Origin: a virus
DNA length: 46,683 bases
Reading direction: 5' to 3' (one strand)
IMG/VR virus record: IMGVR_UViG_3300045988_122518
Each line of letters begins with the position of its first letter. The stretch's first letter is position 1. Positions 34,931 to 46,139 of this stretch are shown here, one piece after another. The notes beneath the pieces were generated by a model. That model did not search any database, was not told the origin of the DNA, and was given only the letters and a program-made list of their open reading frames with translations. A program made the translations under genes and the position numbers.

Positions 34931-35731
34931 TTGAAATATTGTGTTTCTGTGCGTCAACCTGATGTTGTTCGTGAGAAGGCTGATGAGCTTATGGTTAATT
35001 ATAATGATATAAACATTATGTATGATATGATTTAGAAATTTCCTAATAAGCGATATATTATCAGAATCCGCAAAAACGAAGAAGTGAATTGGGAAGAGAT
35101 TGATTCCTTTAAGGATAAAGTCGATCTTATTGTAGCATTTGAAGATATGCTTACTCGTAATGGATGTAATATTGATGTAAAGTATTATTTCGCTTATCCC
35201 GCTACTACATGGGCAGAAGTCCGCGTTCTCCTTGATCTTAAAGTTAGCGAACTTTTCATCGGGGCACCACTTACATTTGATTTGAGACAATTAAATCAAC
35301 AAGCAAAAGTCCCAATTCGTATGATTGCGAATAAATGCTATGACGATAATCTTCCAAGAGAAAATGGAATATGCGGTTCCTACGTCCGACCGGAAGATGT
35401 AGATTATTATGGAACATATGTCTCGACATTAGAATTCGACGAACCCGCACTCTCTAAGGAAGCCGTGCTTTTGGATATCTACCAAAGTGGTCATTGGCAA
35501 GGTAATCTAAACCTTTTATTAACCAATCTAAATTATAATGCGGATAATCGTGGAATCCCCGAAGATTTTGGCCCCAACCGCATCAATTGCGGTCAGCGCT
35601 GTCAGCGACAAGGGACGTGTCATTATTGTGAAACCGCATTTATATTCTCTCGTGTTATAGATAAAGCCGTTCAAGCAAGTAAGCAGAATAATCCTATCCC
35701 CGAGGCGGAAGAGGACTCAATTGACAAATAA
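34931..35731 (+). CDS. Protein (267 aa) with a TTG start and an in-frame TAG at 35033-35035; Cys-rich C-terminus
   Basis: Perfect RBS aaaggag + 8 nt + TTG, immediately downstream of the promoter. The TAG is in frame, with phase checked base by base, and joins a 34-codon N-terminal segment to the 215-aa ORF at 35084-35731. Confidence 0.45.
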
Positions 35732-35782
35732 AAAAAATAATGTTATAATATAAATATAAGATAAAAGATAGGAGAATAAACT

Positions 35783-36889
35783 GTGAGAGGTTTTAAAACT
35801 AATGAACTTTGGTTATTTGAATATCTGGTTCGCTCGACGCAAGATGAGTTAAGGGAATATGTTGCCGATGTATTAAAATCTAAATATACTGAAGTAGTTA
35901 TTACTAAAGAGTATGTTTGTGCAGTTGGCGATATTCCGATTGCTTTAGTGGCTCATCTTGATACCGTGTTTGAGAAACCGGTCAAAGATTTATATTATGA
36001 CACAAGAAAAAATGTGCTTTGGTCGCCTGAAGGTCTTGGCGCAGATGATAGAGCAGGAGTATATGCGATTCTTCATATTTTGAGGAATACATCTTTGCGC
36101 CCTTCTATTATTTTTACCACTGATGAAGAAATTGGTGGATTAGGCGCCGAAGCATTAGTATTACAATATTTTGAGTGTCCATTTCCTGATTTGAAATATA
36201 TTATTCAGTTGGATAGACAAGGCACAAATGATTGTGTGTTTTATGACCTTTACAATCCTAAATTCATCGATTACATTGAATCTTTTGGATTTGTAGAGGA
36301 TTTTGGCACGTTTAGTGATATTAGTGTTTTATGTCCTGAATGGAAAATTTGTGGTGTAAATCTTTCAGTTGGATACAAGAATGAACATAGTCATGTTGAA
36401 ACATTAAATGCGGGTGCTCTTTTTGATACGATTAATAAGGTAATCCGCATGCTCCAAGAGAAAGATATCCCTAATTTTGAGTATTATCGTAATTATCATA
36501 ACATTTGGTTCGATAATGTTTGTAAGAATTTTCCAACTGATGGCGATGGATTCTACGTTCATTGTAGAGGATGCGGTCAGTTATTTAGTGAATATGAAAC
36601 ATTTCCAGTAAAGGGATTAGACGGACATACATGTTTTTATTGTCCTGATTGTATTCCCAGTAATGTTGAATGGTGTGCGGAGTGTGAAGAGGCATTTGAA
36701 ATTGACCCTGCGAACCCACACAGCGAGTATTGTAAAGATTGTATTGGAGGATTAGTCAAATGTCATATGACTTCGACATCGAAAGCATTAGAGAACAGTT
36801 CAACAAAGTCATCAGTTACTCCCAAGGAATCAGTAATCCAAAAACAGAAGAACTATTCGAAAGGTTCCTCGAAGCCAAAAAAGACTTAA
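35783..36889 (+). CDS. M20/M28/M42-type Zn-dependent peptidase-like protein with a Cys-rich C-terminal extension (368 aa)
   Basis: Motifs ALVAHLDTVF, GADDRAG and DEEIGGLGA match the metal-binding H/D/EE positions of the M42 (FrvX/YsdC) and M20 folds. GTG start with RBS taggagaataaactGTG. Confidence 0.45.
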   Translation: MRGFKTNELWLFEYLVRSTQDELREYVADVLKSKYTEVVITKEYVCAVGDIPIALVAHLDTVFEKPVKDLYYDTRKNVLWSPEGLGADDRAGVYAILHILRNTSLRPSIIFTTDEEIGGLGAEALVLQYFECPFPDLKYIIQLDRQGTNDCVFYDLYNPKFIDYIESFGFVEDFGTFSDISVLCPEWKICGVNLSVGYKNEHSHVETLNAGALFDTINKVIRMLQEKDIPNFEYYRNYHNIWFDNVCKNFPTDGDGFYVHCRGCGQLFSEYETFPVKGLDGHTCFYCPDCIPSNVEWCAECEEAFEIDPANPHSEYCKDCIGGLVKCHMTSTSKALENSSTKSSVTPKESVIQKQKNYSKGSSKPKKT

Positions 36890-38190
36890 TTAAATTTTTC
36901 CACGGTCATTTAATTTATGAATGGCCGGAAAAGGTATCTTTTTCCTTAGATGATAAAACCAAAGAACATCGTCTTGAGGAGTTTCTTGAAACAATTAATT
37001 ATACTTATAATAATGAAGACTTAAAAGATTTTATTTCAGTAAATAAAGAAGGATTCTTTGATAATACAGTTATAGATACTTATTTTTATAAGGATAAAAA
37101 GATTCCAAGAGGAATGAAATTAGTTAAGGCTTTTAAGTATTTTGAAGAGAATCCGCGTTCTTTGGAAGATATTCAAAATTATGCAAGTCGTATTATCCAA
37201 GAGGATAAGATTGAGGGAACATTATGTTTCTCAGTTCATCCTTTGGATTTTTTAAGCGTAAGTGAAAATACTTATAATTGGCGTTCTTGCCATGCGCTTG
37301 ATGGTGAATACAGAGCAGGAAATTTATCTTATATGGTAGATAGAAGCACTTTTATTTGCTATTTGCGCGGAGCGGAGAATCAGAAACTTCCGCATTTCCC
37401 CGAAGACGTTCTTTGGAATTCTAAGAAATGGCGTATGCTTCTTTATATGGAAGATAAACGACGCGGTTTGATGGCTGGTCGCCAATATCCTTTTATGACA
37501 ACTAATGCTTTAATTAAAATTAAAGATATTATCAATACTTTTGATAAGACCTTTCAGTTGCGTGATTGGGTAGATGGAGGTATTAACACTGTCTCTAATA
37601 GGATGAGCATTACTTCTTTTGGTGAAGAAACTATCGGATTATCTGAAACATGGATTCCTATTTTATCTCGTTTATATCCTATTGGTGATATTGTTGGAGA
37701 TATTGGCGAGCATACTCTTCAATATAATGATTTGCTTTATTCCTCTTGTTATTTACCTATTTACAGTTTAAAATTGTATTATTATCCATTGGAGACTGAT
37801 CTTCCTCATTGGTCTATTGGTGGTGATGTTCCTTGCTTACAATGCGGTAAAACTGTAATCGAAAGTGGAGAATATATGCGATGCGGAGATTGTGAATTCA
37901 GTTATGGAGTAAACGAAGACGATAACTATGGGTATTGCGCTTGTTGCGGTTCTCGTATAATTCTTGATGAAGCAAATTCCGTAGGCGATGAGAATGAATT
38001 AGTTTGCGATAGTTGTGCGGATACTTATTGTAAACGATGCGAATGTTGTAATAATTTATATTATACAGAAGATATTCACTATCATAAAGGAACTGATATG
38101 TATTTATGTCCTTGGTGCTTTAGAGATGCTGGTGAAGAAAAAGTTAATAATTTTAGGTCTTTAAAAGACTTTATACATAATTTTAGTTAA
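36760..38190 (+). CDS. Large protein (476 aa), paralog of 32648-34252, with C-terminal CxxC clusters
   Basis: ATG 36760 with RBS ggagga + 9 nt. Overlaps the upstream peptidase-like gene by 130 nt in another frame. CLQCGK, CGDCEF, CACCGS, CDSCAD, CKRCECC, CPWC. Confidence 0.55.
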   Translation: MSYDFDIESIREQFNKVISYSQGISNPKTEELFERFLEAKKDLIKFFHGHLIYEWPEKVSFSLDDKTKEHRLEEFLETINYTYNNEDLKDFISVNKEGFFDNTVIDTYFYKDKKIPRGMKLVKAFKYFEENPRSLEDIQNYASRIIQEDKIEGTLCFSVHPLDFLSVSENTYNWRSCHALDGEYRAGNLSYMVDRSTFICYLRGAENQKLPHFPEDVLWNSKKWRMLLYMEDKRRGLMAGRQYPFMTTNALIKIKDIINTFDKTFQLRDWVDGGINTVSNRMSITSFGEETIGLSETWIPILSRLYPIGDIVGDIGEHTLQYNDLLYSSCYLPIYSLKLYYYPLETDLPHWSIGGDVPCLQCGKTVIESGEYMRCGDCEFSYGVNEDDNYGYCACCGSRIILDEANSVGDENELVCDSCADTYCKRCECCNNLYYTEDIHYHKGTDMYLCPWCFRDAGEEKVNNFRSLKDFIHNFS

Positions 38191-38202
38191 GGAGAATTAG
38201 AT

Positions 38203-45211: not shown

Positions 45212-45287
45212 CGGTCAATAGCTTAATTGGTAGAGCATTGTTCTCATAAGACAAAGGATATTAGTTCGATTCTAATTTGACCGACCA
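45212..45287 (+). tRNA. tRNA-Met (anticodon CAU), CCA encoded
   Basis: Perfect acceptor cggtcaa/ttgaccg. Anticodon loop ctCATaa. T-arm attag-ttcgatt-ctaat. Confidence 0.8.
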
Positions 45288-45288
45288 T

Positions 45289-45364
45289 TGCGGAAGAGTG
45301 AAACGGATTTATCATGCCAGGCTCATAACCTGCGCGATATTGGGTTCGACTCCCATTTCCGCAA
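45289..45364 (+). tRNA. Second CAU-anticodon tRNA (initiator Met or Ile2-lysidine type), no encoded CCA
   Basis: Acceptor tgcggaa/ttccgca perfect. Anticodon loop ctCATaa. T-loop ttcgact. Starts 2 nt after the previous tRNA. Confidence 0.6.
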
Positions 45365-45497
45365 GGAGCATAAAATGTCACCACACACCTTCACGATGGT
45401 ATGCTCTGTTTAAACTAACGGTGGGACTAAAATTTTGGTTGCGTTTAGATAATTTAGCAACCAAAAACTCCATAAAATAATGGAGGATGATAAAAAT

Positions 45498-46139
45498 ATG
45501 GCATACATTTATAAAATTATCAATGATGTAAATTAGAAAATTTACATTGGAAAAACTGAGTTTTTTATTGAGAAACGTTTTAAAGAACATTGTAAAGATG
45601 CTTTTAGAGAACGCAATGAAAAACGTCCATTATATTCGGCAATGCGAAAATATGGAGTAGAACATTTTCATATTGAGCTAATTGAAGAGACTAACAATCC
45701 AGAAGAGAGAGAAATTTATTGGATTGAAAAATTAAATGCTTATTAGAATGGATATAATGCCACTAAAGGTGGCGATGGTAAATTAATTTATGACCATAAA
45801 GAAATTTTAAAAGCATTAAAAATAAATCCTCGTCCAATAGAAATAGCTGAATTATTTCATTGTAGTCCTGATTTAGTTTATTCAATAGCAAAAGAAAATT
45901 GTATTTAGATAATTAATCGAGCGAATGAAAATTTAAGAAAAGAAAAATCTAAAGCAATTAAACAATATGATAAAAATGGAGATTTACTCAATTCATTTGA
46001 ATCAGTAGCCGAAGCTGGATAGTGGTGTTATAAAAATAAAAAATGTTTAAATTATAGTTCTGGAGTTAGAAGTCATATAGCAGAATGCGCGAATGGTAAA
46101 CGAAAATCTGCTTATGGCTATATCTGGAAATATATTTAA
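45498..46139 (+). CDS. GIY-YIG homing endonuclease (213 aa) with four in-frame TAG codons
   Basis: RBS aatggaggatgataaaaatATG. N-terminus MAYIYKIINDVN*KIYIGKTE matches GIY..(10-11 aa)..YIG. Then R..EH and ELN..NGYN. TAGs at 45534, 45744, 45906 and 46020 are all in phase. Stop TAA at 46137. Confidence 0.55.

Follow-up and report, generated by a model that had tools for sequence, protein, structure and literature searches.

Gut phages recoded according to genetic code 15 include members of the crAss-like, Lak and 'gemstone' clades (bioRxiv 10.1101/2021.08.26.457843). Sapphire and Jade are clades of large genomes, and at 26% the fraction of recoded genes is lowest in Sapphire (bioRxiv 10.1101/2021.08.26.457843). 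Recoding of TAG in gut phages was validated by proteomics (PMC9523058), and HDV-like (theta) ribozymes have been described as adjoining the suppressor tRNAs of code-15 phages on their 3' side (PMC10879173).

Here we describe a recoded locus in a stretch of viral DNA of 46,683 nucleotides (IMG/VR record IMGVR_UViG_3300045988_122518), referred to as the window. TAG is a sense codon in genes of the window, and we consider it highly probable that the window is a portion of a gut phage genome (human/animal gut virome) of about 190 kb, with contigs of 181-198 kb, using genetic code 15 with TAG read as glutamine. The recoding is genuine, but of a type that is already known, genetic code 15. No published description of this phage lineage was found in the literature. 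The original prediction, made from the letters alone, proposed a recoded phage with TAG to Gln as the precedent and a decoder encoded elsewhere, and this core reading is upheld by selection acting across the TAG codons, by exchanges with Gln codons and by the tRNA(CUA) of the relatives.

Results

Eight genes carry in-frame TAG codons

We found 29 in-frame TAG codons in 8 genes, none of which contains an in-frame TAA or TGA:

17248-17679, minus strand: possible gene, weakly supported; 143 codons, 4 TAGs
17885-18442, minus strand: gene in a variable low-GC island; 185 codons, 2 TAGs
34931-35731, plus strand: gene of 266 codons; 1 TAG, codon 35 (35033-35035)
38628-39182, plus strand: first gene of a fibre-like module; 184 codons, 4 TAGs (38907, 38961, 39027, 39168)
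39199-40614, plus strand: glycine-rich-domain (PF12810-type) fibre-like protein; 471 codons, 6 TAGs (39766, 39772, 39904, 40126, 40177, 40471)
40596-41921, plus strand: paralogous glycine-rich-domain fibre-like protein; 441 codons, 5 TAGs (40737, 41115, 41469, 41529, 41682)
42189-42674, plus strand: HNH homing-endonuclease-like gene; 161 codons, 3 TAGs (42336, 42558, 42624)
45498-46139, plus strand: GIY-YIG/NUMOD1 homing-endonuclease-like gene; 213 codons, 4 TAGs (45534, 45744, 45906, 46020)

The TAG counts predicted earlier were correct for genes 34931, 40596, 17885, HNH and GIY-YIG, but had to be lowered from 5 to 4 for gene 38628, which does carry in-frame TAGs and ends at 39182 rather than 39183, and from 7 to 6 for gene 39199. 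The strong ribosome-binding sites and TAA or TGA terminators expected of these genes are present: each has an AGGAGG-type site (AAGGAGG in gene 40596-41921) and ends with TAA. The minus-strand frame 17248-17679 is likely the eighth TAG gene; it offers few substitutions on which to judge selection, and no family matches to it were found in our searches, PHROG among them.

TAG makes up only 21% of off-frame stop triplets, yet all 29 in-frame stops are TAG (P about 2e-20); thus, the in-frame excess goes beyond chance. Among the terminators of 76 conservation-supported genes there are 54 TAA, 22 TGA and no TAG (P about 7e-6 for the lack of TAG), and no evidence of TGA or TAA read-through was seen. 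The suggested comparison of coding density gave the anticipated rise when TAG was treated as sense, from 0.804 to 0.866 over the whole window and, more strongly, at 34.9-42 kb, where it went from 0.748 to 0.906.

In comparisons with the relatives, most substitutions, whether before or after a TAG, hit third codon positions. The test of coding signal was restricted to TAGs with sufficient substitution data, and the same-frame signal persists past every one of them. In gene 34931-35731, whose TAG at 35033 is kept in 8 of 8 relatives, substitutions at the first, second and third codon positions number 2/0/27 before the TAG and 45/25/321 after it, and at two codons of the window, CAA (35297) and CAG (35684), relatives have additional TAGs. 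Third-position bias is present in each inter-TAG segment of gene 39199-40614, and gene 17885-18442 shows 2/0/21 substitutions against the single relative covering this region.

Pfam and PHROG domains likewise run across TAG positions. PHROG matches cover residues 204-454 of the 39199-40614 product, passing over its TAGs, and residues 23-293 of the 40596-41921 product; PF12810 was found in the relatives' products of the former gene. The Pfam HNH domain occupies residues 104-145 of the 42189-42674 product. In gene 45498-46139, TAGs kept in the relatives lie inside the spans of both GIY-YIG (residues 1-87) and NUMOD1 (residues 152-173).

TAG most probably encodes glutamine

Exchanges between the window and its relatives point to Gln, not Tyr, as the meaning of TAG. 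CAA or CAG is the exchange partner at 9 of the 31 variable TAG sites, mainly CAA, which requires a two-step change; in gene 39199-40614 TAG alternates with CAA at 39772, 39778, 39904, 40126 and 40210, and in gene 38628-39182 the partners of TAG are CAA at 38961 and TCA/AGC at 38907. Other partners are codons for Tyr, His, Lys, Glu, Arg, Asn and Ser. Gln codons make up 1.12% of the codons of the TAG-rich cluster if TAG is left out and 2.48% if it is counted, compared with 2.2-2.5% elsewhere in the window.

The proposed alignment of TAG sites to homologs also yielded Gln. At TAG 42624 (codon 146) of the HNH gene, Gln is invariant (CPNCHS-Q-T) among five cultured standard-code phages, infecting Staphylococcus, Pseudomonas, Enterococcus, Rhodococcus and Streptomyces, and an NCBI contig encodes a homolog with a genuine Gln codon at this position and a TAG at the site of a window Gln. 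In the motif ECWGA-TAG-GG of gene 40596-41921 (TAG at 40737), 85 of 113 homologs have Gln at the TAG position, table-11 NCBI/UniRef proteins included.

The suppressor tRNA was sought in the window and in the relatives. The window contains the beginning of a long tRNA array, which extends further in the relatives:

42000-46287, plus strand: start of the tRNA array; 11 tRNA genes with two homing endonucleases interleaved
42001-42070, plus strand: tRNA-like gene, anticodon loop of 6 nt (CUUCAA); Rfam tRNA, 46.2 bits

No CUA anticodon is present among these 11 tRNA genes; the earlier report of its absence was right, but not the count of nine tRNAs. The expectation of a decoder gene outside the window was borne out, as tRNA(CUA) is encoded by 19 of the 19 relatives with enough downstream DNA, 6.2-8.0 kb past window position 46332. 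The closest relative (L033, about 98% identity) also carries it. Since the suppressor tRNA does not lie within the window, its presence in this exact genome is extrapolated from the relatives, and we infer that the same tRNA(CUA) is encoded here.

Two forms of the suppressor occur among the relatives. In the commoner, 90-nt form (type A), which the closest relative carries, the extra arm is 21 nt long, untypical of tRNA-Gln; the D-loop of the 73-nt form (AGCGGCAA) is tRNA-Gln-like. G73 and a non-Watson-Crick 1-72 pair are common to both forms, and we take them to be tRNA-Gln-like identity elements of the kind recognised by E. coli GlnRS. These features suggest that tRNA(CUA) would be charged with Gln.

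It could be argued that TAG is a sense codon for a different residue, either Tyr or, considering the 90-nt form, Ser or another class II amino acid. TAT stands opposite TAG at one site of the paralogous fibre-like genes, which had been taken earlier as a hint of Tyr; moreover, TAT/TAC is exchanged with TAG at 3-4 sites and Ser codons at 2, and the type A tRNA combines its long extra arm with G73. However, Tyr codons are single-step neighbours of TAG, the dominant Gln exchanges are mainly two-step changes to CAA, and an exchange with a Phe codon never occurs in the relatives, though Phe is the commonest replacement of Tyr. The hint of Tyr does not survive, as the family consensus at that very site is Gln, and Gln is the invariant or consensus residue at both motif sites of standard-code homologs. 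TAG also exactly fills the deficit of Gln codons, and the TAG sites are the same in phages bearing the 73-nt Gln-like tRNA as in those bearing the 90-nt tRNA. A meaning other than Gln is therefore improbable.

Decoding of UAG as pyrrolysine was rejected, as the tRNA(CUA) of the relatives has normal D and T loops and Gln stands opposite the TAG sites. The window proteins gave no match to Pyl-related families, and the 'tRNA-Pyl' label given by ARAGORN was discounted as merely reflecting the CUA anticodon. Genes for RF2 or aminoacyl-tRNA synthetases were not found in the window either.

A candidate ribozyme follows the suppressor tRNA of the relatives

The sequence directly after the relatives' tRNA(CUA) reads GGUGCU...ACCUCCUCGCGGU...AGCACUGG...GCUAA...UUUGUUU, and this candidate HDV-like (theta-type) ribozyme can form pairings of the P1, P2 and P3/L3 type. 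In L033, the match begins 1 nt past tRNA(CUA) (17309-17363; E = 0.023) and covers the full length of the Rfam HDV-F-prausnitzii model (positions 1-74) at a sub-threshold score (26.1 bits; the gathering score is 44). The motif is kept at 19 loci and is identical behind both forms of tRNA(CUA). No such motif was detected beside the window's own tRNAs at E <= 1.

TAG codons are concentrated in the right part of the window

Two parts of the window are poor in TAG:

1-16000, plus strand: early-type region; numerous small genes, no in-frame TAG, no TAG stop
18841-38508, plus strand: middle block; 36 genes, among them those for a phosphoesterase and an M20/M28-like peptidase

Each small gene of the early-type region is preceded by a near-consensus extended -10 sigma-70 promoter; 102 promoter-like sites were counted, against 43.7 +/- 6.8 expected, about 35 of them strong and on the plus strand. 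In the 29 supported genes at 1-16 kb, TAG accounts for 0 of 79 Gln-type codons and only TAA and TGA serve as stops, in agreement with what was claimed for the early genes. The middle block has one TAG, at 35033, among 120 Gln-type codons (119 CAA+CAG), and the right cluster 22 among 40 (Fisher P = 2e-13 and 4e-15). Of the 29 TAGs, 22 lie in a group of 5 genes within 7.5 kb, and two of these genes are homing endonucleases. As the TAG-poor zone reaches 38.55 kb, dense use of TAG begins at 38.6 kb and not at 34.9 kb. The proposed division between early and late genes consequently holds for the TAG-free early region, but the TAG-poor zone also takes in the middle block with its single exception.

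The TAG pattern may reflect the timing of expression. TAG density may also be explained in part by AT-biased drift from CAG to TAG where tolerated, and not by regulation, because the middle block is TAG-free though not obviously early, and because the tRNA array and gene 34931-35731 stand behind consensus sigma-70 promoters, perfect in both cases (TTGACA-17-TATAAT at 34878-34906 for the latter). The GC content is about 0.43 at 1-16 kb and about 0.33-0.40 thereafter. No terminase, capsid or other structural hallmark genes were recognised in the window.

Discussion

We propose that the phage would encode an amber-suppressor tRNA (anticodon CUA) further along the same tRNA array, about 6-8 kb past the right edge of the window. 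This suppressor would decode TAG in a subset of genes, namely the glycine-rich fibre-like module, the two homing endonucleases and a few island genes, and, to judge by the closest relative, in others further downstream, e.g. those for an NAGPA-SPOR protein and a Flg_new-repeat protein. Correct translation of the TAG-free genes, those of the promoter-dense early region and the 20 kb middle block, would be possible whether the suppressor is present or not, while full-length products of the TAG genes would appear only after it becomes active. TAG is avoided as a terminator throughout the window.

Could the TAGs be true stops, within fragmented pseudogenes or short ORFs, or be passed by low-level read-through without a dedicated tRNA? 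Many short ORFs are callable in the region under the standard code, and the window itself lacks a suppressor tRNA. This very unlikely explanation is already refuted by the frame statistics (TAG alone interrupts the frames, and no gene ends with it), by same-frame purifying selection past every TAG with data, together with domains running across TAGs, and by tRNA(CUA) in all relatives with enough downstream DNA.

The tRNA-like gene 42001-42070 might itself be regarded as the TAG decoder. It lies directly after the fibre genes behind its perfect promoter and is highly conserved, with an almost invariant body and two loop alleles in 22 genomes; one loop position is absent relative to the Rfam tRNA model, and one register of the loop gives a stop-reading anticodon, UCA in the window and UUA in other genomes. 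Neither allele has CUA, however, and that of the window would decode UGA, a codon with no sign of read-through, as is also true of TAA. Moreover, genomes with either allele have common TAG sites and a canonical tRNA(CUA), and we regard such a role as hardly credible. Sequencing or assembly errors, or a chimeric window joining a higher-GC early to a lower-GC late part, as the drop in GC might suggest, can be practically dismissed, since identical TAG positions occur in >20 independently assembled contigs from different samples and the two parts are contiguous in other IMG/VR contigs (e.g. 118370 and 126226).

Three side observations are the tRNA-like gene with the 6-nt loop, the existence of two suppressor forms and an ArfA-like ORF that is also located in the tRNA array. 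A rather doubtful idea is that the code switch goes beyond a single amber suppressor and is a multi-part module that modulates termination at two or more stop codons (or resists host anticodon nucleases). It is raised because two unrelated tRNA(CUA) bodies, one with a class-II-like extra arm, swap at one locus, because the only variable loop bases of the tRNA-like gene, which is kept by all relatives, toggle between an opal-like (UCA) and an ochre-like (UUA) state, and because the ArfA-like ORF shares the array.

Reading of TAG as Gln has a classical counterpart in E. coli supE, an amber suppressor derived from tRNA-Gln and obeying the identity rules of GlnRS. Like suppressors of this type, the tRNA(CUA) of the relatives has U1, a weak or non-Watson-Crick 1-72 pair, the G73 discriminator and G10, and the 73-nt form resembles them also in its D-loop; the long extra arm of the 90-nt form is unlike them.

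The candidate motif immediately 3' of the relatives' tRNA(CUA) is placed like the theta ribozymes of suppressor tRNAs (PMC10879173), but differs in its sub-threshold Rfam score (26.1 vs 44 bits) and lies outside the window; its exact sequence was not found in the parts of the supplements of that paper available to us. In common with code-15 gut phages, TAG is used in a subset of genes including fibre-like or structural ones, with a TAG-free set compatible with the host code, TAG means Gln, the setting is the gut metagenome, and a phage tRNA(CUA) is present, here in the relatives. Genome size (about 190-197 kb, with contigs of 181-198 kb) and the low fraction of recoded genes (8 of 76 in the window) are compatible with Sapphire and Jade, a likeness in these two properties only. 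What sets this phage apart from the described code-15 phages is the unusual concentration of TAG use, with 22 of the 29 TAGs in 5 genes.

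TAG as a sense codon

Once TAG is treated as sense, long open reading frames appear exactly where the original prediction had placed them, and a probable eighth gene (17248-17679) can be added. The TAG counts given there held for five genes and were too high by one each in 38628-39182 and 39199-40614. An AGGAGG-type ribosome binding site precedes every TAG gene, as was claimed, and all their stops are TAA, rather than TAA or TGA.

Genes of the window with in-frame TAG codons
34931-35731, plus strand, 1 TAG
38628-39182, plus strand, 4 TAGs
39199-40614, plus strand, fibre-like, 6 TAGs
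40596-41921, plus strand, fibre-like, 5 TAGs
42189-42674, plus strand, HNH endonuclease, 3 TAGs
45498-46139, plus strand, GIY-YIG endonuclease, 4 TAGs
17885-18442, minus strand, 2 TAGs
17248-17679, minus strand, probable gene, 4 TAGs

The window was aligned to 46 related loci, and reading frames were kept if differences fell mainly at third codon positions. The 76 genes supported in this way end in TAA (54) or TGA (22) and never in TAG (P about 7e-6 from trinucleotide composition), whereas TAG accounts for each of the 29 in-frame stops but for just 21% of those off frame (P about 2e-20). Third-position bias is seen in segments both before and after the TAGs; ahead of the lone TAG of gene 34931-35731, a stretch of 102 bases has 2/0/27 substitutions by codon position. 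Pfam matches to HNH, GIY-YIG and NUMOD1, and PHROG fibre matches, likewise extend across the TAGs. Such bias and domains crossing the TAGs, together with the stop usage, exclude the possibility that the TAGs are true stops and the genes pseudogenes. Assembly error is also excluded, since the same TAG positions are found again in more than 20 independent assemblies and single contigs of relatives run unbroken from the early part of the window into the remainder. For the same reason, the drop in GC content from about 0.43 in 1-16 kb to about 0.35 elsewhere is not a mis-join. Reading TAG as sense lifts coding density at 34.9-42 kb from 0.748 to 0.906. Given this evidence from reading frames, substitutions, stop usage, domains, density and recurrence, in-frame use of TAG is real and not an artefact. 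Two other frames were rejected: 43935-44120 (2 TAGs) is non-coding, with substitutions of 26/30/30, and 7989-8432, ending in TAG, gives way to the real gene at 8174-8437.

Amino acid at TAG

Four independent lines of evidence point to glutamine. TAG occurs in at least one genome at 31 sites, and 9 of these have CAA or CAG in other genomes, mostly CAA; going between CAA and TAG takes two base changes and leaves the protein unaltered only when TAG means Gln. Tyr, His, Lys, Glu, Arg, Asn and Ser make up the other partners at these sites; Phe never exchanges with TAG there, though it is the residue that most often replaces Tyr in these genes. The share of CAA plus CAG is only 1.12% in the TAG-rich cluster (38.6-46.2 kb) versus 2.2-2.5% elsewhere, and becomes 2.48% with TAG added.

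Bulk homolog counts were not relied on alone, because a large protein database already renders TAG as Q on these contigs, which makes such alignments partly circular; the homolog evidence rests on cultured standard-code phages and on NCBI, UniRef and JGI entries. Aligned with homologs, the TAG sites of both the HNH and the fibre motif correspond to Gln. The HNH TAG in CPNCHS-x-T faces an invariant Gln in homologs of cultured Staphylococcus, Pseudomonas, Enterococcus, Rhodococcus and Streptomyces phages, and in a further homolog, from an NCBI contig, a genuine Gln codon occupies this site, and TAG stands at the place of a window Gln. At the fibre motif ECWGA-x-GG, where a hint of Tyr had been seen, Gln occupies the site in 85 of 113 homologs, among them table-11 entries from NCBI and UniRef, and the hint did not hold. 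Aligning the two fibre paralogs with each other gave no guide to the residue, as they are rich in glycine and low in complexity. Pyrrolysine at TAG is excluded.

Suppressor tRNA in relatives

As originally stated, no tRNA of the window has a CUA anticodon; the genes number 11, however, and not nine (10 by ARAGORN and a second CAU tRNA by Rfam, 45289-45364). The tRNA array runs on past the window in related loci, and a candidate for the decoder presumed to lie outside was found there: tRNA(CUA), adjoining tRNA-Tyr, is present in 19 of 19 loci that extend far enough, 6.2-8.0 kb after the start of the gene for a 67-aa protein (window 46332) and 7.2 kb beyond it in L033, the closest relative. Two non-homologous tRNA(CUA) bodies alternate at this one locus in close relatives, with identical flanks.

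Forms of tRNA(CUA) in related loci
L033, 17219-17308, 90-nt form, 21-nt extra arm with a TTCC/GGAG stem
L029, 17716-17788, 73-nt form, tRNA-Gln-like D-loop

In E. coli, identity for GlnRS is favoured by U1 in a non-Watson-Crick 1-72 pair and by G73. Both forms have these features, together with the anticodon stem-loop GGUCUCUAAAACC, which would favour charging with Gln. The same TAG sites and the same TAG/CAA exchanges occur in phages with either form. Searching IMG/VR for the 90-nt body with any anticodon returned only the same six CUA-bearing contigs. As the charging of this form is read from its sequence, a small possibility is left that TAG specifies Tyr or Ser, both of which are among its exchange partners; glutamine is the favoured assignment.

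In two relatives, ARAGORN reports an 80-nt 'tRNA-SeC' with anticodon TCA (L011 18260-18339, L014 17839-17918). With several mismatches in the acceptor stem, this call may be spurious or may mark a decayed opal-suppressor-like gene.

An HDV-like (theta-type) motif begins 1 nt past the suppressor tRNA in L033 (17309-17363) and occupies the same position in 18 other loci. Manual reading gives P1 with a G-U first pair, P2 AAACAAA/UUUGUUU and P3/L3 ACC-UCCUCGC-GGU; the match to Rfam HDV-F-prausnitzii is 26.1 bits, below threshold. Theta ribozymes are associated with suppressor tRNAs of phages using code 15, in which TAG is Gln (PMC10879173), and the motif 3' of tRNA(CUA) in the relatives, here a sub-threshold match, would agree with this association. 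The relatives' ribozyme and tRNA sequences were not found in the supplements of that paper. A similar fold noticed by eye after tRNA 45289-45364 was rejected, its L3 being too long and its P2 imperfect.

Odd tRNA and ArfA-like reading frame

Further features of the tRNA region
42001-42070, plus strand, odd tRNA-like gene, good cloverleaf (Rfam 46 bits), 6-nt anticodon loop
44495-44743, plus strand, ArfA-like reading frame of 82 aa, within the tRNA array, stopping 4 nt short of tRNA-Glu

The body of the odd tRNA, which follows a perfect sigma-70 promoter (41929-41957), is almost invariant in 22 genomes; only two linked loop bases vary, giving CUUCAA in 8 genomes, the window included, and AUUUAA in 14. 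Depending on register, the loop offers UCA/UUA (opal/ochre-like), UUC/UUU (Glu/Lys) or CAA/UAA (Leu). It was rejected as the TAG decoder: CUA occurs in neither allele, and TAG sites are common to genomes with either. The allele does not correlate with the form of tRNA(CUA). We looked for TGA or TAA read-through that this tRNA might serve and found none, and a literature search on phage tRNAs with a 6-nt anticodon loop gave nothing relevant.

ArfA is a ribosome-rescue factor working with RF2. The ArfA-like frame has a KKGKGSFKRKQKH motif, and its C-terminal part LFRRRGFKVPAKKGKGSFKRKQKH resembles that factor, with a Pfam score of 22.6 bits, below the cut-off of 25.5. It is full length in at least 20 relatives, where change is mostly synonymous, and is split by public gene callers.

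Distribution of TAG

TAG / Gln-type codons by region of the window
Early region, 1-16 kb: 0 / 79
Minus-strand island, 16-19 kb: 6 / 14
Middle block, 18.8-38.55 kb, 36 genes: 1 / 120
Right cluster, 38.6-46.2 kb: 22 / 40

The early genes are free of in-frame TAG, as had been proposed. In their region, about 35 extended -10 sigma-70 promoters come close to consensus (102 sites versus 44 expected), a density that would fit early transcription by the host polymerase. Many hairpin terminators also lie in 1-16000, and promoters and terminators come at roughly one per small gene. Extended -10 promoters are few in the middle block, where family matches reveal no recognisable structural genes. TAG-free genes match a phosphoesterase, a PNKP-like phosphatase, a MazE-like protein, an M20/M28-like peptidase and DUF5052. 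Perfect consensus promoters stand upstream of gene 34931, the odd tRNA, tRNA-Asn and the ArfA-like frame, and the next 10 kb in L033 hold further TAG-containing genes, including those for an NAGPA-SPOR protein and a Flg_new-repeat protein. A model of standard code early and recoding late fits the published picture, the timing being what we infer here.

Drift offers an additional, non-exclusive explanation of this distribution, namely AT-biased C-to-T change wherever TAG is harmless, of which near-loss of CAG is the expected product. Early genes (1-16000) prefer CAG (56 CAG versus 23 CAA); the TAG-using genes at 38628-46139 have 2 CAG, 16 CAA and 22 TAG. TAG seems to have taken the place of CAG where tolerated, and the near-absence of CAG agrees with a spread of TAG by CAG-to-TAG drift wherever a suppressor makes it harmless.

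Gene 34931-35731 has, within 34878-35035, a perfect TTGACA-17-TATAAT promoter (TG-extended) and a TAG at codon 35 that is kept in 8 of 8 relatives; it is a candidate for suppressor-gated translation. The island at 16000-18800, with low GC (0.33), negative GC skew and TAG-carrying minus-strand genes, is present in only one of the relatives compared, L045.

Neighbouring genes in relatives

In several relatives, a cassette replaces or accompanies the fibre-like module upstream of the tRNA array. It encodes a radical-SAM/glycosyltransferase fusion (~690 aa), a YcaO protein (517-605 aa) and a 292-aa protein, and resembles a RiPP-type gene cluster.

Cassette positions in related loci
L021, 401-9734
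L032, 1-7019
L034, 1-5942
L037, 1-4491
L038, 1-2330

The HNH family occurs very widely across gut assemblies, with 1,812 proteins in the database. Further members also have in-frame TAGs, at differing positions (for example L019 176-643, an NCBI GCA_016282705.1 contig), which suggests that HNH homing endonucleases pass between code-15 phages. In the relative L035, the product of a gene beyond the tRNA array (19941-20204) has an Mtd_N (major tropism determinant) domain, which hints at a diversity-generating retroelement target nearby.

Lineage and comparison with known recoding

The window, 46.7 kb long, covers only part of a far larger phage genome. Counterparts of its 534-aa protein (32648-34252), 83-98% identical, lie on nine IMG/VR contigs, most of 181-197 kb, and the 67-aa protein near the right edge occurs in about 2,000 blocks of a public assembly collection, often on gut-sample contigs of 190-198 kb; L033 is about 98% identical across 37.1-46.7 kb. 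The lineage is thus very common in gut metagenomes. Megablast of 18.7 kb of the window found no match among GenBank phages, and by tblastn against the GenBank phage collection the 534-aa protein reached only about 24% identity to Enterococcus phage proteins; therefore no close relative has been described among them. The fibre protein gave no tblastn match in that collection, probably because of low-complexity masking.

We found no paper on this particular lineage, and since the phenomenon itself is published, the window phage is a further case of the already described recoded gut phages and leaves existing knowledge of phage recoding unchanged. It is a clean example, with TAG use confined to few genes and CAG almost gone there. 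For annotation, it must be translated with code 15, as the standard code shreds its fibre-like proteins, homing endonucleases and downstream TAG genes. Recoded gut phages encode a suppressor tRNA, carry TAG within the frames of some genes and keep their early genes free of it (bioRxiv 10.1101/2021.08.26.457843), and in crAss-like phages Gln at TAG was confirmed by proteomics (PMC9523058). The lineage is like the Sapphire and Jade clades in genome size and in its low fraction of recoded genes.
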